Origin: an uncultured Planctomycetia bacterium
GTDB lineage: Bacteria > Omnitrophota > Gorgyraeia > Gorgyraeales > Gorgyraeaceae
Assembly: GCA_964415355.1 (NCBI GenBank)
Contig: CAYPYS010000001.1
Coordinates: forward strand, 1,361-65,360
Reading direction: 5' to 3'
Length of the DNA: 64,000 bases
Shown here: positions 1,597-59,833 of the stretch, piece after piece
How positions within the stretch are numbered: the first letter of the stretch is position 1
Layout of the letters: every line of letters starts with the position of its first letter
Made by a program: the position numbers and the translations under genes
The notes under the pieces: generated by a model
The model's database searches: none
What the model was told of the DNA's origin: nothing
What the model saw: only the letters and a program-made list of their open reading frames with translations

Positions 1597-1635
1597 CTAA
1601 CTTTACACTTTAACGTTGTTGAAATGTAAAGTTAG
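1597..1635. repeat. 39-bp intergenic palindromic repeat, copy 1 (orientation B: ...CTTTAACGTTGTTGAAATG...)
   Basis: CTAACTTTACACTTTAACGTTGTTGAAATGTAAAGTTAG. It supplies the rdgB stop codon. Confidence 0.9.
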
Positions 1636-5673: not shown

Positions 5674-5712
5674 CTAACTTTACATTTCAACAACGTTAAA
5701 GTGTAAACTTAG
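5674..5712. repeat. 39-bp repeat, copy 4 (A)
   Basis: It lies between xerC/D and queC. Confidence 0.9.
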
Positions 5713-6584: not shown

Positions 6585-6607
6585 ATTTTGTTCTTTACGA
6601 ACAATGC

Positions 6608-6682
6608 CTAACTTTACACTTTAACATTGTTGAAAACTTGTGCCGCCATACATTAAGAATGACATGCGGTATGTAAAGTTAT
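6608..6682. repeat. 39-bp repeat, copy 5, split by a ~34-bp insertion (left part 6608-6635, right arm ATGTAAAGTTAT 6671-6682)
   Basis: CTAACTTTACACTTTAACATTGTTGAAAA, then a 34-nt insert, then ATGTAAAGTTAT. The topA stop codon lies at the right edge. Confidence 0.6.
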
Positions 6683-8649
6683 CATTCTTTAGGGGGCAAT
6701 TTTCGCGAGATATGTGTGCATTTGGGATAATTAGAGCAGCCGTAGAAATGGCGTCCTCTTTTGGAGCGTTTTTCAATAAGCATGCCGCCGCAACCTGGTT
6801 CAGGACACCTGACGCCGCTCGGCAATGACTTTGCGAATCTGCAGTTTGGAAAATCAGAGCAACTCAAAAACCTGCCGAGTCTGCCCCATTTTATAACCAT
6901 GTGTTTCCCGCATTTCTCGCAGACCTCAGAGGTCTTAACCGCCTCCCCCTTGACCTTCCTCATGTTTTCCTTGGCATGCGTAAGGTCTTTCTCGAAAGGA
7001 TGATAAAACCTCTTTAATACACTAACCCTCTTCTCTTCGCCTTCTTCTATCTTGTCCAGCTCTTCTTCCATCTCGGCCGTGAATTTTAAATCCAGTATAT
7101 CCGCAAAGCTCTTCATCAAAAGGTCTGTCACCACCATACCTAATTCTGACGGATGAAAATAGCCTTCCCTTCTCTTTACATAGTTGCGCGCGGCAATAGT
7201 ATATATAATAGGTGCGTATGTGCTGGGCCTGCCAATGCCGTATTCCTCTAGCGCCTTTACCAGCGATGCGTCTGAAAACCTACCGGGAGGCTTTGTAAAG
7301 TGTTGACTCGGGTCCAGCTTTATGACTTCTGGTTTATCCCCGACCTCTAATGAAGGGAGGATCTTTTTATCCTCTTTCGCCTTTTTCTCTTCATATTCTT
7401 CATAAACAACGCTAAAGCCGGCAAAAACCTTCTGTGACCCCTGCGCCTTAAAGAGAAACCTTCCTGCCTTTATCGCTACCACGACCACCGAAAACACTGC
7501 CGGTGACATCTGGCTCGATATAAACCGATTCCATATAAGAGTGTAAAGTTTTAACTGGTCCTCGGTCAAATACTTCTTTATAGCTTTCGGTTCTCTCAAC
7601 GGCAGAGAAGGCCTTATTGCTTCATGCGCTTCCTGCGCGCTCTTTTTCGACTTAAACTTATTCGGCACATGAGGCAGATGTTCTTTGCTATATTTATTAT
7701 GGATATATTTTCTCGCGGCCTCCATCGAATCCTTAGACAACCTGACCGCATCAGTTCGCATGTAAGTAATAAGACCTACATTGCCTTCTTCTCCTATCTC
7801 CAGGCCCTCATATAACTGCTGGGCAGTACGCATGGTCTTTGATGCCGAGAATCTAAGCTTATTAAAGGCATCTTGCTGAAGTTTGCTCGTAGTAAAAGGC
7901 GGCTGGGCATATTTTTTCTTTTCTTTTTTCTGCACATCGCTGACTATAAATTCTTCTTTTTTCAATTCAGAAACAATGTCCGAAGCGCGCTCCTTGCCAG
8001 AGATTTCTATTTTTTTGCCTTCGATCTTGTCAAGCTTAGCAATAAAAACTGTATGTTTTTTTAGATGCGCTTCTATGTCCCAATATTCTTTAGGCACAAA
8101 CGCCTTTATCTCGTTCTCTCTTTCTACGATGATCCTGACCGCGACCGACTGCACCCTCCCGGCTGAAAGTCCTCTTCCTACTTTTCTCCACAATAAAGGA
8201 CTTATGCTGTAGCCGACGAGCCTGTCTAGGATCCTGCGCGCCTGCTGTGCGTCGACCTTGTTGACATCTATGTCTCCTGGGCGTTTAAACGCCTCTTCTA
8301 TCGCGCTCTTTGTGATCTCATGAAACACGACCCTCTTTATATTTTTCTTCTTTCCTAAAAGATTATAAAGATGCCAGCTTATTGCCTCTCCTTCTCTATC
8401 AGGATCAGTCGCGAGAAAGATCTTGTCCTTGCCCTTGGCCTCTTTCTTGAGATCTGTTATTGTCTTTTTCTTCTTCGGTATAGCTATATAGTTTGGCTCA
8501 AAATCTTTTTCAATATCTATGCCCATCTTGGAACCAGGCAAGTCCATGACATGGCCCATCGAAGAAGTCACGACAAAATCCTTGCCAAGGATCTTATTTA
8601 TCGTATTTGCCTTTGCTGGAGATTCGACTATCACAAGCGACTTTGGCAT
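6682..8649 (-). CDS. topA: DNA topoisomerase I
   Basis: MPKSLVIVESPAKANTI is the TOPRIM N-terminus. The protein is 655 aa with C-terminal zinc ribbons (CEKCGKHMV..., CPEPGCGG...). The stop is TGA. Confidence 0.9.
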   Translation of the reverse strand: MPKSLVIVESPAKANTINKILGKDFVVTSSMGHVMDLPGSKMGIDIEKDFEPNYIAIPKKKKTITDLKKEAKGKDKIFLATDPDREGEAISWHLYNLLGKKKNIKRVVFHEITKSAIEEAFKRPGDIDVNKVDAQQARRILDRLVGYSISPLLWRKVGRGLSAGRVQSVAVRIIVERENEIKAFVPKEYWDIEAHLKKHTVFIAKLDKIEGKKIEISGKERASDIVSELKKEEFIVSDVQKKEKKKYAQPPFTTSKLQQDAFNKLRFSASKTMRTAQQLYEGLEIGEEGNVGLITYMRTDAVRLSKDSMEAARKYIHNKYSKEHLPHVPNKFKSKKSAQEAHEAIRPSLPLREPKAIKKYLTEDQLKLYTLIWNRFISSQMSPAVFSVVVVAIKAGRFLFKAQGSQKVFAGFSVVYEEYEEKKAKEDKKILPSLEVGDKPEVIKLDPSQHFTKPPGRFSDASLVKALEEYGIGRPSTYAPIIYTIAARNYVKRREGYFHPSELGMVVTDLLMKSFADILDLKFTAEMEEELDKIEEGEEKRVSVLKRFYHPFEKDLTHAKENMRKVKGEAVKTSEVCEKCGKHMVIKWGRLGRFLSCSDFPNCRFAKSLPSGVRCPEPGCGGMLIEKRSKRGRHFYGCSNYPKCTHISRKLPPKE

Positions 8650-22961: not shown

Positions 22962-23026
22962 TGTCATTCCCGCGAAAGCGGGAATCCATAATTTCTCTAG
23001 ATTCCCGTTTGCACGGGAATGACAAT
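22962..23026 (-). terminator. two GC hairpins (GTCATTCCCGCGAAAGCGGGAAT and its inverted variant) followed on the minus strand by a U-rich tract; putative terminator after the ferredoxin gene
   Basis: The stems ATTCCCGC/GCGGGAAT and ATTCCCG/CGGGAAT are read directly. GTTATTTTTTTC follows on the transcribed strand about 9 nt after the second stem. Confidence 0.4.
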
Positions 23027-25622: not shown

Positions 25623-26707
25623 CGTCTGTATTTAAAATACGCGGCGCACGTTCCTTCGCTAGAGACCATGCACGCGCCTACTGGTTGCTCAGGAGTGCAT
25701 TTTTTGCCAAATAACTTGCAATCAAATGGGACCTTTGCACCTTTAAGCACGCTGCCGCATATACAACCTACATCGGGCTTTGTTTTTATTCTTGCTAATG
25801 AAAATTCTTTTTCAGGGTCGAACATGGAATAATCTTTATTCAACTTCAGCCCGCTTTTTCCAATCTCGCCTATGCCGCGCCATTCTGTATCCTGAACAGA
25901 AAAAACCCTATCCATCAAGCGAAGCGCTTTTTCATTGCCTTTTCTCCTGACCACTCTTTTATACTGGTTCTCTACCTTTGCTCTCTTCGATTCGATCTGC
26001 TTTACAAGCATTAAAATACCCTGTAAAACATCAAGAGGTTCAAAACCAGCTATGACGCAAGGTATATTATATTTTTTGGCGATTGCTTCGTAAGGCGACA
26101 TACCTATAATAGTGCTTACATGCGCAGGACACAAGAATCCCTGTATGTTCACCTCGCGATCCTCCACCAAGGCCTTCATTGCGGGAGGTATTATTTTATG
26201 TCCGGCAAAGACAAAAAAGTTTTTGAGCTTTTTCTTTTTTGCATAGACCAATGTCACTGCCACAGTTGGAGTCGTGGTTTCAAAGCCTACCCCTAAAAAT
26301 ATTATTTTTTTATCAGTGTTTTTTTCGGCAATGTCGACAGCATCCAGCGGAGAATATACGACTTTGACAGATGCGCCTCTTGCCTTTTCCTCTATAAGAC
26401 TGGAATACGAACCGGGCACTCTCATCATATCCCCAAAAGTCGAGATTATTGTCTGCGGGAGCCCGGAAAATGCTATTGCCTTGTCTATGTAACTCTTCGG
26501 AGATACGCAGACAGGACAACCAGGTCCTGAAATAAGATTTATATTCTCGGGAAGCAGTTTACGAATACCAAACTTACAGATAGACATGGTATGCGTACCA
26601 CATACCTCCATCAGGTTTACAGCCTTTAGACCTTTGGCAGTGGCAAAAATAGCCTTTGATATCTTTTTGGCAATCCTATTATCACGAAACTCATCTATAT
26701 ATTTCAT
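25619..26707 (-). CDS. hypD: hydrogenase maturation protein HypD
   Basis: The CGTH and GPGCPVC motifs are present. Confidence 0.9.
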   Translation of the reverse strand: MKYIDEFRDNRIAKKISKAIFATAKGLKAVNLMEVCGTHTMSICKFGIRKLLPENINLISGPGCPVCVSPKSYIDKAIAFSGLPQTIISTFGDMMRVPGSYSSLIEEKARGASVKVVYSPLDAVDIAEKNTDKKIIFLGVGFETTTPTVAVTLVYAKKKKLKNFFVFAGHKIIPPAMKALVEDREVNIQGFLCPAHVSTIIGMSPYEAIAKKYNIPCVIAGFEPLDVLQGILMLVKQIESKRAKVENQYKRVVRRKGNEKALRLMDRVFSVQDTEWRGIGEIGKSGLKLNKDYSMFDPEKEFSLARIKTKPDVGCICGSVLKGAKVPFDCKLFGKKCTPEQPVGACMVSSEGTCAAYFKYRR

Positions 26708-26710
26708 ACG

Positions 26711-26917
26711 CTATAATTCCGAAAGCATGCGAAGAGTTTCTTCTGCTTTCTCTGGGTTAAGCTTTTCTATTGCAAAGCCAGCGTGCACCATTACATAATC
26801 CCCTATCTTTGGACTGGCCAAAAAATTTATCGCGACTCTGCGCTGCACGCTCCCAGCAGAAACAAGTGCCCTGTCCCCTTCTATTTTTAATATTTTCATC
26901 GGTATTGCCAGGCACAT
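26711..26917 (-). CDS. hypC: hydrogenase maturation protein HypC
   Basis: The protein starts MCLAIP. The track's upstream extension MTKEIY is discarded. Confidence 0.85.
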   Translation of the reverse strand: MCLAIPMKILKIEGDRALVSAGSVQRRVAINFLASPKIGDYVMVHAGFAIEKLNPEKAEETLRMLSEL

Positions 26918-26930
26918 ATATATTTCCTTT

Positions 26931-26953
26931 GTCATTCCCGCGGAAGCGGGAAT
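26931..26953. repeat. GC-hairpin repeat GTCATTCCCGCGGAAGCGGGAAT (copy 3 of 4)
   Basis: The stem TTCCCGC/GCGGGAA has a GRAA loop. It lies 13 nt upstream of the hypC start. Confidence 0.8.
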
Positions 26954-26964
26954 CTATATCTCGT

Positions 26965-27002
26965 TTAACTTTACATTTTAACGTTGTTGAAATGTAAAGT
27001 TA
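26965..27002. repeat. 39-bp repeat, copy 15 (B)
   Basis: It lies between hypF-C and hypC, next to GC hairpin copy 3. Confidence 0.9.
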
Positions 27003-28107
27003 AAACTGCCTGGCCAAGCGCGATGCCGCCGTCGTGCGTTGGAACCCTGTCGTGCAAATACAGCTCGAACCCTGCTGTTTCCAAAATAGGTTTAATGTGG
27101 CTTACCAGGAACTTATTCTGAAACACCCCTCCGCTCAAACAAACTTTATTTATTTTATATTTTTTTCTAAGCAATTCACAAACATCCTTTATCATATGAC
27201 AAACTGCATTATGAAATTTCAATGAGATTTCTGTCTTGCTTTTTTTGTTCTGCAGATCTTTAACAATACCTTTGATAAGAAGTTCCCAGTCTATAATAAT
27301 CTTATCTTTGTCTATATACTTAAATTTATAGAACTCATTGCCGAGGCCTCCTTTTATCGACCTCTCTAATTCTATCGCTGCCTGGCCTTCATACCCTGCA
27401 ACGCTGCAAACTCCTATAATCGAGGAAACTGCATCAAAAAGCCTGCCAATACTTGAAGTCAAAGGCGAATTTATTCTTTTTTCTATGGCTTGGATCAAAA
27501 GATTGACTCTTCTTTTGTCCTGCTTCTTCAAAAAATCTATCTTCAAAGTCTTGAAGCCTGGACCAAATACACTATAAAGATAACTCAAGCCCATTCGCCA
27601 AGGCTCTCTGATCGATGCCTCCCCTCCTGGCATAGGCAGATATTTTAAATGAGCTGTCCTCTTGAATCCTTTTATATTACCTATAAAAAACTCTCCTCCC
27701 CACGCCTCTCCGTCAAGACCAAAACCTGTCCCGTCAAAAGATACGCCTATAACGTCTCCCTTGACGTTGTTATCGACTATGCAGCTGGCTATATGGGCCT
27801 CGTGATGCTGGATCTGTTTTATCCCGCATCCTCCGCGTCTCATAATGTCTTTTGCTAACTTAGAGGAAATATATTCAGGATGCAGATCGCATGCGACGAT
27901 ACCTGGTTTAATCTTCAATTTTCTCTGCAAAGATTTTATGTTCTTCTCAAAAACATTCAAATCTTCCAGACTACTTAGATCTCCTCCGGAACGCGACAGA
28001 TACATAGCCCTGCCCCTGGCAAAGCAAAAGCTACTTTTTGATTGAGCGCCTAATGCGAGAATATTAGAGCTTATTTTACGCAATAAATTAATTTTGATAT
28101 AATTCAT
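26971..28107 (-). CDS. hypF: HypF-like carbamoyltransferase, Kae1-like C-terminal domain only (no acylphosphatase, Zn-finger or YrdC domains)
   Basis: ILALGAQSKSSFCFARG...DLHPEY...QIQHHEAHIAS...GVSFDGTGFGLDGEAWGGEF matches the HypF C-terminal domain. The start is moved to MNYIKI past the repeat-derived MLKCKLRCSLQ. Confidence 0.7.
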   Translation of the reverse strand: MNYIKINLLRKISSNILALGAQSKSSFCFARGRAMYLSRSGGDLSSLEDLNVFEKNIKSLQRKLKIKPGIVACDLHPEYISSKLAKDIMRRGGCGIKQIQHHEAHIASCIVDNNVKGDVIGVSFDGTGFGLDGEAWGGEFFIGNIKGFKRTAHLKYLPMPGGEASIREPWRMGLSYLYSVFGPGFKTLKIDFLKKQDKRRVNLLIQAIEKRINSPLTSSIGRLFDAVSSIIGVCSVAGYEGQAAIELERSIKGGLGNEFYKFKYIDKDKIIIDWELLIKGIVKDLQNKKSKTEISLKFHNAVCHMIKDVCELLRKKYKINKVCLSGGVFQNKFLVSHIKPILETAGFELYLHDRVPTHDGGIALGQAVLTLHFNNVKM

Positions 28108-28120
28108 TTGCAGCGAGCAC

Positions 28121-28159
28121 CTAAGTTTACACTTTAACATTGTTGAAATGTAAAGTTAG
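28121..28159. repeat. 39-bp repeat, copy 16 (B)
   Basis: It lies between the MetE-like gene and hypF-C. Confidence 0.9.
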
Positions 28160-29190
28160 GATAAATTATCTTTTGCCAGCCTGGAGACAATAGAGAGTTT
28201 TTTGATTATAACCTCTGTAAGATCCTGAGAAAGAGTTCCCATCCCACAACTAGGCGTGATTAAAGAGCGGGATATCAATAAATCCCGCGGAATGCCTTTT
28301 CCTTCCAATTTTCCTATTTCTGACGACAGTTTCTGAAAAAGAGAATCCTCTGAGTCCTTTAAAGCTGCTTCGGAAGTGGGAATCTGGCCCCACGCAAGAT
28401 AACCGCCTCTTTTTAAAAATTTCGTTATCTCTCCCGGATACAGCGAAAGCCCTTCGGCATAAGAATAGGCGTCAAAATTTATAATATCCACGTTCGTCTC
28501 TGCGAGAAGCGACCAGTCTGTATTGCCGCAGCAGTGAATACCGCTCAAGGCCCCTTTCGAATGAACCTTATCTATGAGGGCATTCAGCATCAATACGATA
28601 TCCTTCCTCTCAATGTTTACAAAGCTAGAGCCAAAACTAGTAAGGTACGGCTCGTCTATAAATATAATAATATTTTTAAAAACACTGCTCAACTTGTCTA
28701 TTTGCCAGGAAGTCTTTATCTCCAGAAGCTTGACCAGGGCATCTCTAAGCGTCTCGTTATATATGATAGACCTCCCTTTTTCGTCAACAACGCTAAGGCC
28801 AAAACTAACAGGGCCTGTAACATGGCCTTTTACATAACCGGGATTAAATTCTCTGGCAATATCCATAAACGCATAGAGCCCTTCTGCGATATCCTTTGAA
28901 AGACCAAGTGGGTCGTAATTATTGGACATATAGACTTCATACAGCTTGCCCAGGTCCTCGCTTAGATCTTTAGTGCTGTCAACATATATCCTTCTATTCT
29001 CTGCATCTATAACCAGCGACGGCAAACCATTGGCAAACTGGACATACATGTTCTCTTTAAAACCTCTCTTTGGAAGTTGAGGCCAAAATGGTATGTCGAA
29101 TTTAGCGCACGTAATCCTAGCGCTTTCCGAGGCATCGGTATACGGTAAGCTTCCTATTCCAGTTGTGAGAAATTTTCCTTTTATCTTCAT
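28156..29190 (-). CDS. cobalamin-independent methionine synthase (MetE) catalytic-domain-like / UroD-superfamily protein
   Basis: TTGIGSLP is the MetE C-domain start motif. IFIDEPYL and HCCGN motifs follow. The protein is 344 aa. Confidence 0.5.
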   Translation of the reverse strand: MKIKGKFLTTGIGSLPYTDASESARITCAKFDIPFWPQLPKRGFKENMYVQFANGLPSLVIDAENRRIYVDSTKDLSEDLGKLYEVYMSNNYDPLGLSKDIAEGLYAFMDIAREFNPGYVKGHVTGPVSFGLSVVDEKGRSIIYNETLRDALVKLLEIKTSWQIDKLSSVFKNIIIFIDEPYLTSFGSSFVNIERKDIVLMLNALIDKVHSKGALSGIHCCGNTDWSLLAETNVDIINFDAYSYAEGLSLYPGEITKFLKRGGYLAWGQIPTSEAALKDSEDSLFQKLSSEIGKLEGKGIPRDLLISRSLITPSCGMGTLSQDLTEVIIKKLSIVSRLAKDNLS

Positions 29191-29228
29191 GACTATCTAT
29201 TTTAGCACCGCCTCCTCAAGCGGGTCAA

Positions 29229-29268
29229 CTTAACTTTACACTTTAACGTTGTTGAAATGTAAAGTTAG
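29229..29268. repeat. 39-bp repeat, copy 17 (B), first of an inverted tandem pair
   Basis: CTTAACTTTACACTTTAACGTTGTTGAAATGTAAAGTTAG. Confidence 0.9.
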
Positions 29269-29302
29269 CTAAGTTTACTTTTAACAATGTTAAAGTGTAA
29301 AG

Positions 29303-29306
<4 letters not shown>
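29269..29306. repeat. 39-bp repeat, copy 18 (A-like), second of the inverted tandem pair
   Basis: CTAAGTTTACTTTTAACAATGTTAAAGTGTAAAGTTAT. Confidence 0.85.
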
Positions 29307-31357
<2,051 letters not shown>

Positions 31358-31367
31358 ATTGGCAGGC

Positions 31368-31406
31368 CTAACTTTACACTTCAACAATGTTAAAGTGTAA
31401 AGTTAG
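31368..31406. repeat. 39-bp repeat, copy 19 (A), first of an inverted tandem pair
   Basis: It lies between the BioU-candidate gene and bioF. Confidence 0.9.
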
Positions 31407-31444
31407 CTAAGTTTACTTTTAACAATGTTGAAATGTAAAGTTAG
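31407..31444. repeat. 39-bp repeat, copy 20 (B), second of the inverted tandem pair
   Basis: CTAAGTTTACTTTTAACAATGTTGAAATGTAAAGTTAG. Confidence 0.9.
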
Positions 31445-32397
31445 CGCAGGATCATTGGCATGAAGTCAGTGGAACCGAACATGCCGTATATTTTATGTTG
31501 CTTAAGCCATAGCGCGCGCTTCATATACCCGAGGGCAGGACCCACGACATTGGCTGCCATGGATGTCTCGTCGCCAAGTATAAACCTATGGCTAGATTTT
31601 TTACCTTCGAATGTCCTGCCTGTCAGGGTCATCGTCGTAGAAACAGGTTTTTTTGCACACCTCGTATCCATCACGCCGCCCACCGAAACCTTCTTCAGTG
31701 AATCCACGACCCCTGTATTCTTTAGCAATATATCGTCGGCGTGCTCCATTTCGCGAAGCACAAGCTTCCCCTTAGTTCTATCGAGCAGCTTATCGACTTC
31801 TGTGTCTGACATGCGCTTTGCCTTTTCAACCGTGTAACCCGGAAGATGCGCTATATCCTCCCTGATAGTGGCCCTGTACGCGTCCCAATTCGAAATACCA
31901 ACGCCCCACCATATATTCACATCATCGACCTCTGCAAATGACTGGGCTGCGAGAACCGCAGCGGCAGACAAAAGACCAGGCGTCGCGCCACAGCCGGCGA
32001 TATATACGCTATTGTTCTTTTTTAGATCATTGTCCAGCTTCATCATTAATTTAATTGCCGCGGTGCGTTTCAAAGCACACGTATATACGCCGCCATACCC
32101 AGCCTTAATAAACCGCTTCACCACGCCGGGAATGAACTCATTCGGGAGATTCGGAAGCGCCACAAAGACTCCATCGAACTTGTTCTTTAATTTTATAATC
32201 TCTCCTATGGAATCATTTGAGGGTTTGAGATTTTTTAAATCTTTTACGGTAATACCTTTTTGTGAATACAGGAACCCGCCGGAATCACAGATCGCAACCA
32301 CCTTTGCCTCTTTCTTTTTCTCTACGACATCCAGACAGGCCTTGCCTAACCCACCAGCCCCCAAAACCGCAATTTTCATCTCCTTAATCTTCTCCAT
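31441..32397 (-). CDS. NAD(P)-binding Rossmann-fold protein embedded in the bio operon; candidate BioU-type replacement for the missing bioA (inference)
   Basis: A GxGxxG fold is present (KIAVLGAGGLGKA). The gene lies between bioB and bioF on the same strand. The start is moved to MEKIKEM. Confidence 0.5.
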   Translation of the reverse strand: MEKIKEMKIAVLGAGGLGKACLDVVEKKKEAKVVAICDSGGFLYSQKGITVKDLKNLKPSNDSIGEIIKLKNKFDGVFVALPNLPNEFIPGVVKRFIKAGYGGVYTCALKRTAAIKLMMKLDNDLKKNNSVYIAGCGATPGLLSAAAVLAAQSFAEVDDVNIWWGVGISNWDAYRATIREDIAHLPGYTVEKAKRMSDTEVDKLLDRTKGKLVLREMEHADDILLKNTGVVDSLKKVSVGGVMDTRCAKKPVSTTMTLTGRTFEGKKSSHRFILGDETSMAANVVGPALGYMKRALWLKQHKIYGMFGSTDFMPMILR

Positions 32398-32413
32398 GTC
32401 TCCTCCTTTTATC

Positions 32414-32452
32414 CTAACTTTACATTTCAACAATGTTAAAGTGTAAAGTTAG
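32414..32452. repeat. 39-bp repeat, copy 21 (A)
   Basis: It lies between bioB and the BioU-candidate gene. Confidence 0.9.
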
Positions 32453-33426
32453 ATATCAAATCCCAGATCTCTCGCCATCTGTAAATCTTCTTCCACAGAC
32501 CTTCCTCTCGTAGTGAGATACCCTCCTATGATCATACCATTTGCTCCTGCCATGAATGCCATCGCCTGCAAGTCTCGCAGCGCGTGTTCTCTGCCGCCCG
32601 CCACCTTTATAGTCGCCCTGGGCAGCACCAGTCTAAAAACAGCTATTGTCTTCAATATATCAAAAGGCGAAAGCGGCTCAATGCCTTCGAGCGGTGTGCC
32701 CTTGCGCGGATTGAGGATATTCAAGGGAACGCATGTAATACCGAGATTTTTTAAAGCAAAAACAAGAGATATCCTATCATCTTCGCTTTCTCCTAAACCG
32801 ATTACCCCGCCGCAACAAGGATTCAGCCCAACGCCCTTCAGTGTCTCCACCATGCTCAACCTATTCTTATAAAGGTGCGTTGTGCAAATATTTTTATAAA
32901 AATTTTCTGACGTCTCCAGGTTATGATTATATCTATCAATGCCTAATTCTTTTAGCTCTTTCACCATGTCACGCCCAAGACTTCCGAGCGAGCAATCTAC
33001 CTTTATACCAACCTCTCCGCTGATTCTCTTTATGGCCTTTTTAATACTGTCAAATTCTTTTCTCGTCGGCCCCTCTCCGCTGATCACAATGCAAAAATTA
33101 GTCGCGCCAGCCTTCTTGGCCGCCTTAGCCTCTCTGACCATCTCATCTGTGCTAACAAGAGGATAAACCTCGCAACCCGTCTTATATACTGAAGACTGCG
33201 CGCAGAATTTACAATCTTCTGAACAAAGTCCGCTTTTTGCATTTATCAAAGAACAGAAATCCATCTTATTGCCGCAAAATCTGCGCCTCACAGCGTCAGC
33301 CGCATGCATTAAAAAATGCAATTCCTCCCGTCCTGTATCTAGAAGATCCCTTGCCTCTTCAATGCTCAGCTCTTCCCCGGACAATACACTATTTAAAAGA
33401 GAGTTTATTCTACTCATGCACCTCAT
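32449..33426 (-). CDS. bioB: biotin synthase (radical SAM)
   Basis: The CSEDCKFCAQ radical SAM motif and the surrounding BioB core are present. Confidence 0.9.
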   Translation of the reverse strand: MRCMSRINSLLNSVLSGEELSIEEARDLLDTGREELHFLMHAADAVRRRFCGNKMDFCSLINAKSGLCSEDCKFCAQSSVYKTGCEVYPLVSTDEMVREAKAAKKAGATNFCIVISGEGPTRKEFDSIKKAIKRISGEVGIKVDCSLGSLGRDMVKELKELGIDRYNHNLETSENFYKNICTTHLYKNRLSMVETLKGVGLNPCCGGVIGLGESEDDRISLVFALKNLGITCVPLNILNPRKGTPLEGIEPLSPFDILKTIAVFRLVLPRATIKVAGGREHALRDLQAMAFMAGANGMIIGGYLTTRGRSVEEDLQMARDLGFDI

Positions 33427-33435
33427 CGCCTCTGC

Positions 33436-33474
33436 CTAACTTTACATTTTAACGTTGTTGAAATGTAAAGTTAG
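33436..33474. repeat. 39-bp repeat, copy 22 (B)
   Basis: It lies immediately upstream of bioB. Confidence 0.9.
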
Positions 33475-33504
33475 GATCATATAATATTTTATCTCTTATT
33501 GGGT

Positions 33505-33540
33505 AATTGTCAACTTAAGTATAAGATCAAGTTAACAATT
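33505..33540. promoter_or_regulatory. inverted repeat AATTGTCAACTTAAG-N8-CAAGTTAACAATT overlapping the LacI-family gene stop, upstream of the bio operon; operator-like
   Basis: The arms are near-perfect reverse complements. The AATTGT...ACAATT ends resemble LacI/GalR-family operator ends. Confidence 0.35.
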
Positions 33541-34530
33541 CGATTGGCAGGAACTACGCTCTATGAGCTCTGCTGGTAATGCTATTTTTTTGTGACCCTT
33601 GATCCTTTTGGTCATAATCTGCTGCAATGTCTCTGTCGCGATCATAGCCATTTTATGCAAGGGCTGCCTCATGGTAGTGACAGGGACAGGGGAAAAGCTT
33701 AAAGCAAAAGGATTGTCATCGAATCCTATCACTGATATATCGCCAGGTACGCTAATGCCGTTTTCAAGGCAAACCTGTATCGCGCCGACTGCCATCTCGT
33801 CGCTCGCCGCAAATATAGCGGTCGGGGGCTGTTTTAATTTTATAAGCTCTTTGGTAGCTTTTATCGCGGAGTCCCTTCCGAAATCTCCATGCTTTATATA
33901 GTTATCCTTCTTTGTTATCTTATTTTTCTCGAGAGCCCTGATATAGCCATTGAGCCTGTCAATAGCTACCTGAGATTTCAACTCTCCTGTAATAGTCGCT
34001 ATCCTGGAATGTTTTAGTTTAGTCAAGTAATTAACCGCCTCGATGGAAGCATTATAATTATCTATAGCTACACAAGAAACAGGCAGGTCCTTTGTGTAGT
34101 AATTCATAATTACGCACGGCAGGTCCTTCCCAAGCACATCGTCCACCTGATCTTCGTTACCGATAATATCGGAAAAAATCACACCCTCCACAGCCGACGC
34201 GTTCAAAAAACTGTCTCCGTTTGTAATATGCAATAAAAGATCCAGCTTCAGCCTCTCGACTGCAACGCCGACGCCCTGAAGGATCTGCAGGGCATAGAAT
34301 GAATGGAATATATCAGAATATCTCGGAATTATAAGGCCTATAGCGTTATTCTTTTTTGCTGCAAGTCTCTGCGCGCTTACATTTGGCCTGAATTTCAATT
34401 TTTTAATCGCTGCCTCGACTGCCAGTTTATTGGCCTTTTTAACAGACGATAATTTATTTACAACCCGGGAGACCGTTGCTATCGAAACATGCGCTTCCTT
34501 TGCGACGTCTTTTATATTGATATGTCTCAT
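33532..34530 (-). CDS. LacI-family transcriptional regulator
   Basis: N-terminal HTH IKDVAKEAHVSIATVSRVVN with a periplasmic-binding-fold C-domain. Confidence 0.85.
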   Translation of the reverse strand: MRHINIKDVAKEAHVSIATVSRVVNKLSSVKKANKLAVEAAIKKLKFRPNVSAQRLAAKKNNAIGLIIPRYSDIFHSFYALQILQGVGVAVERLKLDLLLHITNGDSFLNASAVEGVIFSDIIGNEDQVDDVLGKDLPCVIMNYYTKDLPVSCVAIDNYNASIEAVNYLTKLKHSRIATITGELKSQVAIDRLNGYIRALEKNKITKKDNYIKHGDFGRDSAIKATKELIKLKQPPTAIFAASDEMAVGAIQVCLENGISVPGDISVIGFDDNPFALSFSPVPVTTMRQPLHKMAMIATETLQQIMTKRIKGHKKIALPAELIERSSCQSNC

Positions 34531-36026
34531 TCTAATCTCTCCCCTTTCTGACCCAATATGCTGGCAGTGACAAATATCAGCAGATTCTTTCTCTCCACGC
34601 TATCCGAGTCTTTTCTGAATAAAGCTCCCAATAATGGCATGTCGCCTAAAACAGGCGTCTTGGTGATCGTATTGGTTCTCGTCTCTTTTATCAGCCCGCC
34701 AAGGACTATTGTGTCCCCGTTCTTCACCACTATATTAGTGGTTAAATTTCTTGTGGTAAATTTAGGAAGTTTGACTTCTCCGCTGAACTCAAACGCATTT
34801 GCAGTCGCCTCGCTTACTTCGGGTCTCAGCGTCATCGTTATTATTTCTTTATCCGAACCCACGCTTGGCGTCACCTTAAGCAAGATCCCCACATCCCTTG
34901 TCTCAAATCCTTGAGGCACATTGATAAACCTCGTTTCCCTCACGCCATCCACGACATCTAAAAAATCACCGTCGTTATTCAGGTCGTTCTTTGTTAATGT
35001 CGGTTCGTATCTGGTCGGATAGACAAACTCATCCACTATCTCTATCGTAGCGGTCTGATTGTTTAAAGTCGTGATCTTTGGCGCGGACAAGGTTTTCAGG
35101 TTTGTCTTCTTTTCAAGCGCGTGCAGGACCGCTGAAAACTGCGGCTTTGTAAGCATGCCTTGATAAGTAAGGTTTAATCCTTCATTAGGCGCTCCTGTAA
35201 ACGCTGAAAAACTCGAACCAGTCCCACCGGCTATCTCAGTCACAGACGTGCCTGCATCTTTATAGATAGGAAAAGAAGTATCCATGGTTAAATTTAATCC
35301 AAACTCGCTTAGATCAGTGACATTTATCTCGACAAACCTTGTTTCTATCAAGACCTGGGTAGCGTCTATATCTAAATTATACAGGATCTCCTCTACGATT
35401 TTTAAATTTGAGGGCGTGTTTGTAATAATCAAAGCGCCTGTCCGATCGTCCAGATTGATCTTTGAATCGCTGGGCCACGAAACAGCATTATCCAGGACAT
35501 CCTTGATGGTATTGACCTTTGAAATACCGGCAGCACCTCCAAATCCACCGCTCAAACCAGCCGTAGGCCCTGAAAACTCAGTAAACATGGCAAGGCCCTG
35601 GTCTAAATAATAAATCCTCGTCTCAGACGCCTCTTCTTGCATCGCATCATAGGTATCGACCCACACTGCATTGTTTTCTATCCTGTATGCCAGGCCTTGA
35701 TGTCTGAATATGTATTTCAAGAGGCTTTCCAAAGACATGTCCTTGACCCTTATGGTGACCTTCTTCTCTTCCGGATCGACGTCTGATCCGAGAATTATAT
35801 TTACCCCTGTTGCCTCAGATAAAAAATCAAGCACATAATCAAGGCTTACGTCTCTAAAATCTACTGTTATGGGGATATCAAGCTTCCCTCTGATCTCAGG
35901 CACCTCTACGATAGAATTCTTCGACTGCGCATCGGTATCCTTTATAAACTTTACCTCATAGGCAGACGCTTCCCGCGCACAACAAATAAAAATAAAGATT
36001 AAAACTACACAACCAATCCTTCTCAT
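34527..36026 (-). CDS. secretin (PilQ/GspD family), short form
   Basis: The C-terminal secretin motif PVLGDMPLLGALFRKDSDSVERKNLLIFVTASIL is present. N-terminal secretin-N/STN-like domains precede it. Confidence 0.8.
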   Translation of the reverse strand: MRRIGCVVLIFIFICCAREASAYEVKFIKDTDAQSKNSIVEVPEIRGKLDIPITVDFRDVSLDYVLDFLSEATGVNIILGSDVDPEEKKVTIRVKDMSLESLLKYIFRHQGLAYRIENNAVWVDTYDAMQEEASETRIYYLDQGLAMFTEFSGPTAGLSGGFGGAAGISKVNTIKDVLDNAVSWPSDSKINLDDRTGALIITNTPSNLKIVEEILYNLDIDATQVLIETRFVEINVTDLSEFGLNLTMDTSFPIYKDAGTSVTEIAGGTGSSFSAFTGAPNEGLNLTYQGMLTKPQFSAVLHALEKKTNLKTLSAPKITTLNNQTATIEIVDEFVYPTRYEPTLTKNDLNNDGDFLDVVDGVRETRFINVPQGFETRDVGILLKVTPSVGSDKEIITMTLRPEVSEATANAFEFSGEVKLPKFTTRNLTTNIVVKNGDTIVLGGLIKETRTNTITKTPVLGDMPLLGALFRKDSDSVERKNLLIFVTASILGQKGERLE

Positions 36027-36034
36027 ATCCCACC

Positions 36035-36072
36035 CTAACTTTACATTTCAACAATGTTAAAGTGTAAAGTTA
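36035..36072. repeat. 39-bp repeat, copy 23 (A)
   Basis: It lies between the two secretin genes. Confidence 0.9.
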
Positions 36073-38796
36073 CTGTTCGCGTATTATCTTTTCGTCTATG
36101 GGCACGCTGGCAACCATGTTCTCTTCTTCGCCCAGGACACTAGCAGTCACGAATATCAATAAATTTCTGCGCTCTACATTATCCGTCTTTTTTCTGAATA
36201 ACCCGCCTACAAATGGAAGGTCGCCCAACACAGGAACCTTTGTCTTTATATTGGTATTTGTCTCCTTTATGAGTCCTCCCATTACAATCGTCTCTCCGCT
36301 ATCGATTATAACACTGGTACTTAAATTCCTTGTCTTAAACTGAGGTATAGAAACCTCTCCCGAATAAGAGAATGTACCAGAATCCTCGCTGACCTCCGGA
36401 GTCAACGCCAATGTTACAGTCTTCTTGTCTGCCCCCACGCTAGGCTTCACATGTAAAAGTATTCCAACGTCCCTGGTAACAAAATCCTGAGGGATATTCG
36501 CCCACTCTGTCTCGCCTGCGTCATCAAAATCTCCATCACCGTTTATGTCAAACTGCACCAGGCTGACCTCATACCTGGTAGGATAGATAAACTCATCTAT
36601 TACTTCTATCGTGGCTGTTTGATTATTTAATGTAGTTATCCTCGGAGCGGATAAAGTCTTTACATTTTGTTTTTCTTTTAAGGCATGCATTACAAACTGA
36701 AACTGCGGATGACTCAGTATCCCTTGATACGTCAGATTAAAACCTTCGGTTGCACGGGTGAAGCTCGAAAAATCCACGCCACTCCCCGAAGCAAACCCAT
36801 GTAAGTTCTGCTTTGAGTTATTTTGCTTAGCGCCCCAGTCGCTGTTTAATTTCCAATCGATGCCCAGCTCATCCACGTCCGTGACCTGCACCTCTAAAAA
36901 TCTCGCTTCAATCAATACCTGTACAGGCGTTACGTCAAGATTATAAAGCAGGTTTTCTACGATCTCTAAATTCGAGGGTATATTGCTTATGATAAGCGCG
37001 CCTGTCCTGTCATCGAGCGTCAACTTTGAATCCTTCGGCCAATCTACCGCGTTTTCAAGTATGTCCTTTACGGTACTGACCTCTGAAGACGAGTCGCCCT
37101 CTTCGCCGGAACTCCCTGAAAGTTCAGCAAATCTACCAATGCCTTGATTCATAAAATAAACCCTGGTCTCTACTTCTTCATTGTCCAGTTCTTCCTTAGT
37201 AGCTACCCATACAGCATCCTCTTCTATTCTGTAAACAAGGTCCTGGGATTTCAGTACATACCTCAGCGCCTCCTCAAGAGGCATGTCTTTTATCTTTATT
37301 GTAACCTTTTTCTCGGCCATATCGATATCGCTCGAAGGTATTATATTGACCCCTGTCGCCTCGGATAGAAAATTCAACACATAATCAAGTTCCACATCTT
37401 TAAAATCTACGCTTAACGGTATTTTTAATCTCTTCCTGATCTCCGGGACCTTTACCAGAGACACTATTTTTTTCTCTTTCTCTAAAATGCCGATCTTTTC
37501 ATCAGGTATAATATGCTTCTTGGCTATTTCCAAAAGCATCTTTGCTTCTACTATCTCGCGAGCCTTTTTAAAGGCCTCTTCCTCTTTTTTTATCTTCTGC
37601 TTATCTACATAATCCTTAACATCCTTAAACCTTCTGTTTTCCGGAAATTCGGCCATCGCTGTCCCGAGCATCTCTTCGGCATCCTCAAACTGCTCCTCCG
37701 CAACATGCACCCTTATGGCCTTCAGCAGCTCTTCTATTCTTGTAATCCTCTCTCTTAATTGCTGCTCCCTGAGCCTCTTTTCAAAAACTACCTTAAGCCT
37801 CTCCTTTTCCCTCTCTTTTTTAGCGCGCTCGGCCTCTTTTATCCTGTCTTCCCGCTCTTTCTCTATCTTTGCGCGCCGCGCCGCCTCCATCTTTGCCATG
37901 ACCGCCCGCTCTTCTTCCCTCTTTATCTCTTTTTGGGCGGATTCAATATAATATTCCGACCTGGAAACCAGGTCATTATCAGGGTCTAATTCCTTTACCT
38001 TTCTGAATTCTGCTATGGCCGTTGGATAATCTCTCATCTTATAATAACTCAGGGCCCTCTCGTATGCACTTTTTGTCTCCCGGGCCAATCTATGTTCTTG
38101 TTTCTTTCTTTCCTGCTCTATCGCCTTAAGGATCATCTCTTCTTCCTGCAATGCCCTCTTGCGAGCTTCTTCCCTCTTTATCTCTATATTCGCTTTTTGT
38201 ATATAAGATTCGGCCTCGGTTACAAAACGACTTTCTGGATCCAGATTTTTTATTTTTTTAAAATTCATTACCGCAAGAGCATATTTTTCATCAATATAAT
38301 ACTCGAGGGCCTTTTCATATGTATTTTCTATTTCCCGCGCGAGCTTTCTTTGTCCCTGCTCTATCGCCTTTAGCCTGTTTTCTTCCTCGACCAAAGCCCT
38401 CTCTTGCGCCTGTTGCTTTGCCAGCTCTTCTTCTTTAGCTATGCGCTCCGCCTCGCTTATTACGTCCTCCTCCATCCTCTGCCATCTCCTGTCCTCTAAT
38501 ACGCTCATCTCTTTTATTCTGGACCTGGACTTATCGATATATATCTCTGCGAAAGGCGTAAAATAAGACTCTCCCTGCGTCTTTTCCATCTCTATGATAT
38601 TCTCAAAAACAGAAATCGCCTCTTTATATCTTCCTGTCTCAAACAAGGACATCGCCTTTTCAAAATACTTCTTCAAATCCACTTTTGAAACCGAGATATT
38701 TTTGTTACTATATAGAGCGGTTTTGGCCAAGGCAAACGCCTGCCCGTTCGATAACAAAAGTGACAATATTAATATTATGCTTAAAATCTTTTTCAT
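36070..38796 (-). CDS. secretin (PilQ/GspD family) with ~600-aa N-terminal coiled-coil/TPR-like repeat extension
   Basis: The C-terminal 450 aa are paralogous to the adjacent secretin (PVLGDLPFVGGLFRKKTDNVERRNLLIFVTASVL). The N-terminal region has an internally repeated module (YEKALEYY...IKREEARKRALQEEE). Confidence 0.8.
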   Translation of the reverse strand: MKKILSIILILSLLLSNGQAFALAKTALYSNKNISVSKVDLKKYFEKAMSLFETGRYKEAISVFENIIEMEKTQGESYFTPFAEIYIDKSRSRIKEMSVLEDRRWQRMEEDVISEAERIAKEEELAKQQAQERALVEEENRLKAIEQGQRKLAREIENTYEKALEYYIDEKYALAVMNFKKIKNLDPESRFVTEAESYIQKANIEIKREEARKRALQEEEMILKAIEQERKKQEHRLARETKSAYERALSYYKMRDYPTAIAEFRKVKELDPDNDLVSRSEYYIESAQKEIKREEERAVMAKMEAARRAKIEKEREDRIKEAERAKKEREKERLKVVFEKRLREQQLRERITRIEELLKAIRVHVAEEQFEDAEEMLGTAMAEFPENRRFKDVKDYVDKQKIKKEEEAFKKAREIVEAKMLLEIAKKHIIPDEKIGILEKEKKIVSLVKVPEIRKRLKIPLSVDFKDVELDYVLNFLSEATGVNIIPSSDIDMAEKKVTIKIKDMPLEEALRYVLKSQDLVYRIEEDAVWVATKEELDNEEVETRVYFMNQGIGRFAELSGSSGEEGDSSSEVSTVKDILENAVDWPKDSKLTLDDRTGALIISNIPSNLEIVENLLYNLDVTPVQVLIEARFLEVQVTDVDELGIDWKLNSDWGAKQNNSKQNLHGFASGSGVDFSSFTRATEGFNLTYQGILSHPQFQFVMHALKEKQNVKTLSAPRITTLNNQTATIEVIDEFIYPTRYEVSLVQFDINGDGDFDDAGETEWANIPQDFVTRDVGILLHVKPSVGADKKTVTLALTPEVSEDSGTFSYSGEVSIPQFKTRNLSTSVIIDSGETIVMGGLIKETNTNIKTKVPVLGDLPFVGGLFRKKTDNVERRNLLIFVTASVLGEEENMVASVPIDEKIIREQ

Positions 38797-47921: not shown

Positions 47922-47945
47922 ATGTCATTCCCGCGAAAGCGGGAA
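47922..47945. repeat. GC-hairpin repeat ATGTCATTCCCGCGAAAGCGGGAATCCATAA (copy 4 of 4; 31 nt identical to the copy at 22961-22991)
   Basis: Read directly from the sequence. It lies between the MscS-like gene start and the GT9 gene end. Confidence 0.8.
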
Positions 47946-47948
47946 TCC

Positions 47949-47985
47949 ATAAAATGCCTAAGCTTACTTTCAACAATGTTAAATG
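47949..47985. repeat. 39-bp repeat, copy 27 (degenerate, A-like)
   Basis: CTAAGCTTACTTTCAACAATGTTAAATGTAAACTTAG lies next to GC hairpin copy 4. Confidence 0.75.
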
Positions 47986-47990
47986 TAAAC

Positions 47991-49196
47991 TTAGGTGGAG
48001 AGGAAGGATTTGACTTTTTTAAAGATGTCTTCGGGCTTGATATTTTTTAAGCAAATGCCTTCTTTGCACGGCGATTTTCTGTGATTATAGACATTCAGGC
48101 AGGGACTGCAGACCAAATCTGAATCTATAGATATTTTGTCGCTATCTCCTTCTCCGTATAAACGAGACGTCTCTGGTCCGAAAAGTATTATGACTTTTAT
48201 GGGAACCAGGGTCGAAAAATGAGCCGGTCCGCTGTCGCTCGTCACCAATAAATCTGCGACACAGTACAAAGTCAAAAGTTCTCTCAGCGAAGTCTCTCCG
48301 GCGAGAGAAATCGCGTCCCCCATCCTATATGCCAGCATCTTGCCCTTTTCTTTTTCTCCGGCAACGCCTGTAATGATAATGGTCGCGCGGGGAAATTCTT
48401 GCAAAATCATCCTCGCCAGTTTCACATAGTTTTCTTCAGGCCAACGCCTCACCTGCAACAGATCATCCATGTCAGGATTCAAAAGTACTATTGGGCTGGT
48501 CAGGTTTGACTTTTTCACGCCCTCGATTTTTTTTACCAGCGCACTTTTCTCGCTTTCACTGGGGGAAAAAACAGGAAGTCCTTCGGTCACATCCGGGGTC
48601 TTAAAGCACATGGGTTTATTATCAGGCGACGGGCAATGATTAAGGGCCTCTACCAATGTTGCGAACAAGACCCTTGTGTGCAGGTATGGATTATATACAA
48701 GCCTGTGAGTAAAAAGATCTCCTCTATAAGGGCCTTCGCAGGTGAACAAGTGAAACCCGACTCTCTTATCAGCCCCGGAAAGATACGAAAGGATAGCAGA
48801 GCCCCTGGAGAAAAATTCCATATCTATGGCAGCGTCTATTTTTTCTTTCCTGATTCTCGCAAGTGCCTTTATCAAGGACAAAATCATGCCGCCAGGAGAG
48901 CTCGGATCTATCTCTATTATATTTTGCGACGGCAGTATATCGAATATATCCAATATATGGCGGTTTTCTTTAAAGACTAAAAAATAAAGATTATCTTTCC
49001 CCACCATACCAGCTGCCTTTTTTAACGCCTGATAGGCGAGCATCGTGGAACCCTGCTCTATTAATTTTATGAAGAGGATTTTGGAGGGATGGCCTGTGTC
49101 TTCGTTATCTTTTTTAAGATTTCTACACACCGTGAGCAAAAAACAAAACACGCTGCCGACGTTCCTGTCTAACCACCGAATAACTCCCTGATTCAT
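47991..49196 (-). CDS. glycosyltransferase family 9 (heptosyltransferase-like)
   Basis: The GT9 fold is present (ILFIKLIEQGS...GPETSRLYGEGD). The start is moved to MNQGVIRW past the repeat artefact. Confidence 0.65.
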   Translation of the reverse strand: MNQGVIRWLDRNVGSVFCFLLTVCRNLKKDNEDTGHPSKILFIKLIEQGSTMLAYQALKKAAGMVGKDNLYFLVFKENRHILDIFDILPSQNIIEIDPSSPGGMILSLIKALARIRKEKIDAAIDMEFFSRGSAILSYLSGADKRVGFHLFTCEGPYRGDLFTHRLVYNPYLHTRVLFATLVEALNHCPSPDNKPMCFKTPDVTEGLPVFSPSESEKSALVKKIEGVKKSNLTSPIVLLNPDMDDLLQVRRWPEENYVKLARMILQEFPRATIIITGVAGEKEKGKMLAYRMGDAISLAGETSLRELLTLYCVADLLVTSDSGPAHFSTLVPIKVIILFGPETSRLYGEGDSDKISIDSDLVCSPCLNVYNHRKSPCKEGICLKNIKPEDIFKKVKSFLST

Positions 49197-49233: not shown

Positions 49234-49272
49234 TTAACTTTACACTTTAACATTGTTGAAGTGTATACTTAG
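49234..49272. repeat. 39-bp repeat, copy 28 (B variant), first of an inverted tandem pair
   Basis: TTAACTTTACACTTTAACATTGTTGAAGTGTATACTTAG. Confidence 0.85.
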
Positions 49273-49311
49273 GTAACTTTACATTTCAACAATGTTAAAG
49301 TGTAAAGTTAG
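49273..49311. repeat. 39-bp repeat, copy 29 (A), second of the inverted tandem pair
   Basis: GTAACTTTACATTTCAACAATGTTAAAGTGTAAAGTTAG. Confidence 0.9.
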
Positions 49312-59418: not shown

Positions 59419-59457
59419 CTAACTTTACATTTCAACAACGTTAAAATGTAAAGTTAG
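59419..59457. repeat. 39-bp repeat, copy 32 (A)
   Basis: It lies between the RR2 and RR3 genes. Confidence 0.9.
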
Positions 59458-59461
59458 GCTA

Positions 59462-59833
59462 TTATTTTAGTAGTTCTTTTATCTTTCCTACCAACGCCTC
59501 TGGCTCGAAGGGTTTTGTAATATATGCGTCTGCACCCATTTCTTTGCCAATCATCTTATCCTTCTCCTGTGCCCTGGCAGTAAACATGATAATCGGCTTA
59601 TGCTTATGTTTTTCGTCAAACTTTAGCATTCTGCAAACCTTATAGCCGTCGATTTTAGGAAGCATTAAATCTAATATTACCAAATCCGGCCACGTAGACC
59701 TAGCCTTATCCAACCCCTCCTGGCCATCAGCTGCCTCTTTCACATCATATCCTACTGCCTCGAGGCGAAACTTCAGCATCTTCCGCAAATCTTCTTCATC
59801 ATCAACCAAAAGAATCTTTTTTTTCTCATTCAT
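59462..59833 (-). CDS. single-domain response regulator (REC only)
   Basis: KILLVDDE...ILDLMLPKIDGY. Confidence 0.85.
   Translation of the reverse strand: MNEKKKILLVDDEEDLRKMLKFRLEAVGYDVKEAADGQEGLDKARSTWPDLVILDLMLPKIDGYKVCRMLKFDEKHKHKPIIMFTARAQEKDKMIGKEMGADAYITKPFEPEALVGKIKELLK

Follow-up and report, generated by a model that had tools for sequence, protein, structure and literature searches.

Within the 64,000-nucleotide stretch of contig CAYPYS010000001.1 analysed here (hereafter the window), we found 31 canonical copies of a 39-bp imperfect palindrome located at 28 gene junctions, three of which hold two directly abutting copies (doublets, referred to below as pairs 1 to 3). With a probability of roughly 0.6, we consider these copies to be members of a palindromic repeat family resembling repetitive extragenic palindromic (REP) elements and miniature inverted-repeat transposable elements (MITEs), which is present in one Candidatus Omnitrophota clade and occasionally places a second unit beside a resident one, the orientation of the two being incidental. 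The family is undescribed and new for Omnitrophota; no description of the repeat was found in the literature on Omnitrophota with REP, MITE or palindromic elements. On their own the doublets carry little weight, as they would be rare secondary insertions whose orientation holds no mechanistic signal. The family itself is more useful, as it represents a dense, undescribed palindromic repeat in several species of an uncultured phylum.

Anatomy, placement and turnover of the repeat

The unit has the consensus YTAAC TTTACAYTTYAAC-RWY-GTTRAARTGTAAA GTTAR, with two 16-nt arms around a 3-nt centre (16+3+16), and each unit contains TAA in all three frames of both strands. A degenerate pattern for the 35-nt core, allowing up to 3 mismatches, gave 58 matches over both strands of the window vs 0 in 100 shuffles, and the 31 canonical units were obtained by a fuzzy search together with an nhmmer profile. 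This represents a density of about one copy per 2 kb, divided into 25 singlet junctions and 3 doublets. Our aligned set comprised 102 units from at least five populations, of which 96–99 have TA at both ends in the context YTAR. The ends of the unit are YTAAC...GTTAR, and no GTAG/GTGG tetranucleotide head is found at a fixed flank. A 16-nt half-site (≤ 1 mismatch) occurs only once outside full units, in a long form at 6610. Within the 35-nt core, seven positions alone (10, 13, 17–19, 23 and 26) set the polarity of a unit. The sequence AACTTTACAC TTT AAC GTT GTT G AA A TGTAAAGTT is called the A form, and its reverse complement the B form. Polarity is clear-cut in most units (median between-strand gap of 21.5 bits by profile score), and in the window both polarities are found mixed, 12 A to 17 B overall and 10 A to 15 B among single units.

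Nearly every one of the ~60 genes in the window lies on the − strand, and every unit was found to be intergenic, between − strand genes, with none inside a gene. At 18 of the 28 junctions the stop codon of the upstream gene is the TAA at the 5′ end of the unit (cTAActtt), and at 4 further junctions an internal TAA of the unit serves as the stop codon; 18 of these 22 in-unit stops therefore use the first TAA, when one third would be expected with a random frame (p ~ 4e−6). The unit is followed by AGG(G/A)G and then by ATG, usually 7–18 nt on, and a few units instead precede clear TTGACA/TAAAAT-type promoters or occupy a 5′ leader. Where the junction is empty in relatives, the genes abut or overlap and the last residue of the upstream protein is unchanged, which indicates that the element sits exactly at the stop codon and leaves both proteins intact. 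It should also be noted that tRNA genes are directly flanked by units at three places (L064 170–370, L014 5000–5280 and window 1597–1635), and that in L064 one unit stops 1–2 nt from the mature tRNA 5′ end.

Syntenic loci in relatives were reached via two window proteins plus one metagenome scan. We observed that copies of the repeat have been gained, lost and replaced between relatives at 92–93% protein identity. Relatives at 87–93% identity (L074, L073, the JACKQG contigs and L077, which is the metagenome-assembled genome (MAG) CAYULJ) carry the same family with differing site occupancy. At 72–76% protein identity no element was found in L032–L034, and L030 carries a related family, TTTACATTTTAGTCAATGACARAARTGTAAA, with the outer arms alone in common, as well as a 150-nt form with the same termini. 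The MetE-like/hypF junction holds a single unit (28121–28159, its TAA being the stop codon) which is present in L074 and absent from L077, and in L073 its place is taken by an unrelated palindrome between the same flanks. The unit between the two secretin genes (36035–36073) is present in L077 and gone from L074, where the genes overlap; at the junction of the 172-aa gene and the secretin gene it is L074 which carries a unit and the window genes which overlap. In the bioB 5′ leader, the unit at 33436–33474, downstream of a TTGACA-16-TAAAAT promoter, has the same arrangement in L074 and is a long form in L077, and in L030 other unrelated palindromes fill sites used in the window. Such differences in occupancy would fit a repeat which comes and goes at permissive junctions.

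Unrelated palindromic families were found at the same junctions in several of these sequences, including L030 (5645–5777, 6742–6936, 14565–14708 and 19818–19990), L074 (10559–10668), L073 (1713–1787) and the intergenic regions of L035. Examples of such repeats in related Omnitrophota are GTCCGAACTT..., CCCGCCCTTTT.../...AAAGGGCGGG and CGAGGTTTAAACCTCG. It would seem that small repeats in general can land at these junctions.

The termini of the family follow (Y)TAA[C/G]TTTACA...TGTAAA[G/C]TTA(R), and the interiors vary, with long forms of 59 to 150 nt. The termini TAACTTTACA/TGTAAAGTTA are common to the 39-bp unit, to a 78-nt long form at 6607–6684, to the forms in L073 and L077 and to the L030 family with its 150-nt form, and no other part is shared by all of these. 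Termini common to short and long forms are also a feature of MITEs of the IS630/Tc1-mariner or Correia type. The 78-nt form (CTAACTTTACA...TGTAAAGTTA, with a different interior) lies just upstream of a XerC-like gene, and its TAA is the topA stop codon; in relatives, long forms are found at L073 512–641 and L077 5005–5063, with related forms also in L030. From the shared termini, variable interiors, high copy number, extragenic placement and turnover we infer a REP/MITE-like repeat, which would be spread by an enzyme acting in trans. The conserved TA within YTAR is compatible with a putative TA-targeting insertion into TAR stop codons. A 19-nt mini-hairpin insert, TACCRCTTCGTGGCRCAGG, was also found after TTTACA inside units at two different junctions in two species (L077 5005–5063 and L073 512–560), which suggests nested or modular variants.

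The three doublets and in-place flips

An initial annotation of the window had reported two copies side by side at three loci, always in opposite orientation, and had likened the resulting ~78-bp higher-order palindromes to bacterial interspersed mosaic elements (BIMEs). The adjacency was confirmed: the 39-mers abut with no linker at 29230–29268/29269–29306 (pair 1), 31368–31406/31407–31444 (pair 2) and 49234–49272/49273–49311 (pair 3), and a pattern for the pair junction gave 3 matches in the window vs 0 in shuffles. Pairs 1 and 2 recur in L001 (ENA) and L002 (JGI), which are independent assemblies of the window's own population, and are therefore real rather than assembly artefacts.

The opposite orientation was found to be clear in pairs 1 and 3, which by profile score read A then B on the + strand. 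In pair 1 the older unit (29230–29268) is canonical, has the A form on the + strand (51.3 vs 26.4 bits) and, with transcription from the − strand, is distal to the stop codon; the extra unit (29269–29306) is a B-like deletion variant with a 34-nt core (AAGTTTAC-TTTTAAC), and its TAA (29303–29305, − strand) is the stop codon of an open reading frame (ORF) of 82 aa. In pair 3 the stop-codon-distal unit (49234–49272) has the A form on the + strand with a variant inner arm (GTATACTT; 43.8 vs 26.3 bits), and the stop-codon-proximal unit (49273–49311) is canonical with the B form on the + strand (46.8 vs 28.9 bits), its TAA being the stop of the upstream 153-codon ORF. Pair 2 is ambiguous: its older unit (31368–31406), which adjoins the bioF start, is B-like on the + strand, but in its extra unit (31407–31444), a 34-nt deletion variant whose TAA is the stop codon of a saccharopine-dehydrogenase-like gene, the arms and the centre indicate opposite polarities (31.4 bits on the + strand vs 28.2 on the − strand). 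Inversion in 3 of 3 pairs would in any case be reached by chance with p ~ 0.11, as calculated from the 10 A and 15 B singlets. As regards the higher-order palindrome, a single hairpin is predicted for each pair, but pairs 1 and 2 are not exact palindromes because a shared 1-nt deletion leaves their second units at 34 nt instead of 35.

Partners within a pair differ at 3–5 of 35 positions. The extra units of pairs 1 and 2, which both sit on the stop-codon side, are each other's nearest relatives (2 differences and a shared junction, TTAGCTAAG), while comparison with the reverse-complemented neighbour gives 4–5 differences for each, including the indel; this deletion-variant subtype is absent from pair 3. 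As each extra unit resembles that of the other pair and not its own neighbour, no local inverted duplication took place.

Single units were found at both of these sites in relatives at 87–93% identity. At the site of pair 1, singlets were found in L061, L074 and L077, a complex long form in L073 and empty junctions in L030 and L032, and the single unit of L061 and L074 is identical to the distal unit of the window at 35/35 core positions, with the same flanks. The site of pair 2 holds a singlet in L077, which is orthologous to the distal unit of the window and shares its downstream flank, CCTGCCAATATG; an unrelated repeat of 108 nt is located there in L074 and a member of the L030 family in L030, and in L032 the ATG comes directly after the TAA. 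Judging from these comparisons, pairs 1 and 2 started as singlets, to which a unit from a distinct subfamily was added later. The indel of pair 1 can be placed anywhere in a 10-nt repeat, so that sequence alone cannot separate an insertion from a slippage deletion, and parsimony across four relatives favours a putative insertion. The extra unit likely came by insertion or, for one pair, by gene conversion from the other, 2.1 kb away, and since all three doublets share one 39-nt register, the site of arrival would seem to be specified. Between pair 1 and the start codon of the MetE-like gene there is also a promoter-like site, TTGACC-18-TAAAAT, which contains GAGGAGG (29199–29228) and is kept in L074, L077 and L073.

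Doublets are rare: none was found among ~95 units from four or five related populations (38 in L004–L020, 46 in the JACKQG contigs and ~11 in L074/L077), in short-read assemblies, which break at repeats. The junction pattern also gave 0 matches in a metagenome contig collection, which is a weak negative as this collection is also without the window's own population. The orientation had initially been taken to argue for a mobilisation or duplication mechanism which inverts the unit, and this is not borne out, given the 3–5 differences between partners, the singlets of relatives, the in-place flips described below, the rarity of doublets and an orientation bias which is not significant with n = 3.

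Polarity was observed to flip in place. Flanks which are ~86% identical surround the single unit at 1597–1635 (+ strand, A form, core start at 1599) and its orthologue in L042, and the two cores differ at the seven polarity positions and nowhere else; the 17-nt core has been reverse-complemented at this orthologous site and again between L005 and L072. One unit (core start at 28123) shows a one-arm change vs L074, and polarity is kept in eight other orthologous pairs. As polarity flips in place, it represents a labile flip/flop state and holds no record of insertion, and we caution that the "orientation" of a near-palindrome should not be taken as insertion history. The remaining differences between orthologues are compensatory or located in the loop, including C-G to G-C at pair 3/33 (twice), C-G to T-A at pair 10/26 and A-T to G-C at pair 9/27. 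Over the 102 units, pair 3/33 is C-G in 83, G-C in 12 and mismatched in 7, and pair 10/26 is a C.A mismatch in 53, T-A in 28 and C-G in 21.

Replication template switching at imperfect inverted repeats leads to spacer inversion and the homogenisation of arms (PMC8604942, PMC8794818). The units resemble such quasipalindrome template switches in the concerted reverse-complementing between perfect arms and in the symmetric compensatory changes of the arms; it should be noted that template switching is a mutational process, which would explain the polarity states and not the origin of the repeat. The units provide clean natural examples of in-place core inversion with compensatory arm changes in a quasipalindrome.

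Copies typically start on the upstream stop codon and end just before the next ribosome-binding site, and in a mobile REP/MITE-like family a doublet would form when a second unit arrives at a junction with a resident unit. In pairs 1 and 2 this second unit is the 34-nt variant, which occupies a fixed register on the stop-codon side of the resident unit. The 17-nt core, which lies between perfect outer arms of 9–11 bp, is inverted from time to time, most likely by replication template switching between the arms or by gene conversion from a copy aligned either way. Opposite polarity may at most reflect better survival, as a direct doublet would be an exact 39-bp tandem repeat and prone to deletion.

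Weighing the explanations

Several points weigh against a mobile family with occasional second insertions. No transposase or REP-associated tyrosine transposase (RAYT) was found among the ~50 of ~62 window ORFs which were covered by Pfam or PHROGs. No target-site duplication was demonstrated, either for the filled site in L051 vs the empty site in L018 or at the junctions, which are too divergent, and the terminal TA could equally belong to the inverted termini. A simple TA-insertion model leaves the identical register of the three doublets unexplained, and at the site of pair 1 the relatives are without the 4 nt (TAGC) which this model predicts; pair 1 could also have arisen by gene conversion from pair 2, 2.1 kb away. 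Orthologous units are almost identical while their flanks differ by 7–17%, with changes which are compensatory or in the loop, a near-identity which could reflect functional constraint just as well as homogenisation. The sole recombinase among the ORFs covered is a XerC homologue of the housekeeping type, in a dprA-topA-xerC context. This homologue (gene at 5709–6584) was considered as the partner enzyme and rejected, on account of the housekeeping context and because the "half unit" which precedes it is the end of the 78-nt long form.

Functional constraint would be expected if the unit were primarily an intercistronic RNA hairpin, acting in translational coupling, in protection of the upstream message from 3′-exonucleases or as a processing site for RNase III or a specific protein, and we regard this explanation as rather unlikely. 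The unit would be transcribed as part of operons, with a hairpin of 16 bp. Under coupling, the hairpin would be opened by the ribosome which terminates at its foot, so that the downstream site becomes accessible, and in any of these roles doublets would be stronger versions. A stop codon at one foot of a hairpin and a Shine-Dalgarno sequence at the other represent the classic geometry of translational coupling, and the units have a stop codon at the 5′ foot (18/28), the Shine-Dalgarno AGG(G/A)G at the 3′ foot and ATG 7–18 nt on. For single units the predicted folding energy is −12.5 to −18.2 kcal/mol (z-scores −4 to −7), with little difference between the polarities, and the units are kept at 11 orthologous sites with the compensatory changes at 3/33, 10/26 and 9/27, in a sequence conserved across at least five populations. 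However, the same operons are found in relatives without the unit or with unrelated palindromes, which indicates that it is dispensable and replaceable, and some units lie beside tRNA genes or upstream of promoters, where coupling is impossible. Conservation is also far stricter than a hairpin needs, yet 53 of 102 units have C.A at pair 10/26, and template switching yields compensatory-looking changes without selection (PMC8794818). It should be noted that a role as an RNA hairpin and a selfish origin are compatible and do not exclude each other.

A more specific and decidedly tentative possibility, which we think improbable, is that the unit is a portable module of stop codon, hairpin and Shine-Dalgarno fragment, which would be read by a sequence-specific factor and would set coupling or processing at about half of the junctions in the window. 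If this were true, doublets would be a stronger setting, flips would be neutral since both polarities fold alike, and the orthologous conservation with compensatory changes would be due to selection.

It is very doubtful that the units are DNA sites for a dimeric or tetrameric chromosomal protein (a nucleoid protein, one of the gyrase or integration host factor (IHF) type, or a global repressor), bound cooperatively at doublets. Their two-fold symmetry, their very high uniformity across species and the 12 A to 17 B ratio, which fits an orientation-independent function, would agree with such a role, as would the analogy with the BIMEs of Escherichia coli, which bind IHF, gyrase and DNA polymerase I. 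However, half-sites are almost never found alone, and the sites have been gained, lost and swapped for unrelated palindromes between close relatives. Anchoring to stop codons is without an obvious rationale in DNA binding, and no candidate protein was identified.

A further explanation, which we consider far-fetched, is that the doublets are a distinct element of the BIME or REPIN (a hairpin-forming REP doublet) type, created by an inverting duplication or kept for a 78-bp cruciform or long hairpin: two of the three show clear inversion and the third tends towards it, all share one 39-nt register, and they fold as long hairpins, but the 3–5 differences and the indel between partners mean that they are not fold-back copies, the extra unit comes from a different subfamily with the singlet as the earlier state in relatives, polarity flips in place, inversion in all of the pairs has p ~ 0.11 (n = 3), linker motifs are absent, and 0 doublets were found in ~95 other units and 0 in the junction scan. 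An ideal inverted doublet folds at −51.9 kcal/mol vs −33.7 for a direct doublet and ~ −30 for two singles, and the real doublets are predicted to form one long hairpin each on either strand at −27.7 to −43 kcal/mol; they are far from the ideal energy, above all pair 1, whose mRNA strand has the −27.7 kcal/mol. Inversion is predicted to improve the long hairpin, yet nothing shows selection for the long form, and the selection for a larger cruciform which had initially been proposed is indicated by nothing that was tested.

We also compared the unit to known repeat systems. The REP elements and BIMEs of Enterobacteria and Pseudomonas, which are associated with RAYT Y1 transposases, are similarly imperfect palindromes of 35–40 bp which are extragenic, high in copy number and co-transcribed at the 3′ ends of genes; they too have conserved mismatches which give polarity, and copies which are at times adjacent and of opposite polarity. 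The initial likening to BIMEs holds to this extent, as the unit is a REP-like extragenic palindrome whose neighbours of opposite polarity recall them. It differs from them in having no GTAG/GTGG head, no alternation of Y and Z with BIME-type linker motifs and no RAYT known for the family, and in that doublets are rare, units start on the stop codon and polarity flips in place. REPINs, as described by Bertels and Rainey, share the prediction of one hairpin from two inverted units and the long-term inheritance at fixed sites; however, in REPINs it is the doublet which replicates, with singlets as products of its decay, whereas here singlets are the norm (25 vs 3) and doublets are derived. Correia repeats of Neisseria (Correia repeat enclosed elements, CREE, or Neisseria miniature insertion sequences, NEMIS) and enterobacterial repetitive intergenic consensus (ERIC) sequences or intergenic repeat units (IRU) are alike in their TA-bounded inverted termini, their location at ORF ends, their co-transcription and their long and short forms, and in those systems the terminal hairpin is a known substrate of RNase III or RNase E. 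They are, however, 100–160 bp in length with distinct interiors, including an IHF site in Correia repeats, whereas the unit here has 39 bp and consists of two termini plus 3 nt.

Further classes of element were considered and rejected. An integron cassette array with attC sites disagrees with the mixed polarity, the syntenic housekeeping operons and the XerC homologue as the sole tyrosine recombinase, and a DNA uptake sequence (DUS/USS) disagrees with a lone half-site which occurs once only. No unit was called as an intrinsic terminator in 26500–36500, and the stems are AT-rich and followed by AGG. The spacing of 19 nt in TTTACA...TAAAGT misfits a promoter, and real TTGACA/TAAAAT promoters are found beside some units. 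A CRISPR (clustered regularly interspaced short palindromic repeats) repeat was also rejected, as was a known Rfam family: against Rfam 15 no match at the units reached the gathering score, with three tRNAs alone at threshold and the doublets giving sub-threshold matches to miRNA precursor hairpins.

Genomic context and further features

The window represents a bacterial chromosome. Its GC skew is uniformly negative over positions 1–64000 (−0.06 to −0.31), and the whole window lies within one replichore with extreme gene co-orientation. Its genes include tRNAs, ham1, rph, a fumarase gene, queE/queC, xerC, topA, dprA, a shikimate kinase gene, genes for MBH/Mrp-type hydrogenase subunits, hyp genes, the MetE-like gene, bioD/bioF/bioB behind a LacI-type regulator, two secretin genes, type II secretion system (T2SS) and type IV pilus (T4P) genes, and histidine kinase genes. 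Homologues of the window proteins carry the names Omnitrophota or Omnitrophica, and exact-match scans matched the 39-bp element in Candidatus Omnitrophota MAGs; among the matches listed in the scans with single units were at least one metagenome (JACKQG01) and at least three GTDB MAGs. A phage or viral origin was rejected, as megablast gave 0 matches to 50,697 phage records and the unit is absent from IMG/VR; nine viral matches to the short junction pattern are chance matches with no unit in them.

Many of the JACKQG01 contigs (L037–L072) of 1–3 kb have a unit within ~100 nt of their start or stop, which would be the expected outcome of a repeat breaking short-read assemblies. In L001 (1332–1447), an apparent 100-nt difference from the window in the saccharopine-dehydrogenase-like gene resembled an insertion polymorphism; it is no real insertion but a scaffolding gap consisting of a run of N, together with mis-joined sequence.

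Among the single units not described above, that at 32414–32452 lies between bioB and the ribosome-binding site of the next gene, and its TAA is the bioB stop codon. The other 20 single units span 5010–61821, with core starts at 5012, 5676, 8691, 9839, 10484, 11568, 15089, 19515, 20955, 23458, 24236, 26967, 41916, 43805, 47056, 57375, 58620, 59421, 61381 and 61785. The shortened (deletion) subfamily was also found in single copies at 2960–2997 and 47959–47996.

Two further repeats were seen in the window. A second small family, TGTCATTCCCGCGAAAGCGGGAATCCATAA, with a GC-rich hairpin (ATTCCC-N8-GGGAAT), is found at 22962–23015, 26930–26983 and 47923–47976, and 2 of its 3 copies directly adjoin a 39-bp unit. 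A direct repeat of 142 nt with 71% identity (59419–59560 and 61379–61520) starts with a unit, runs into the following sequence and is located upstream of two sets of histidine-kinase and response-regulator genes.

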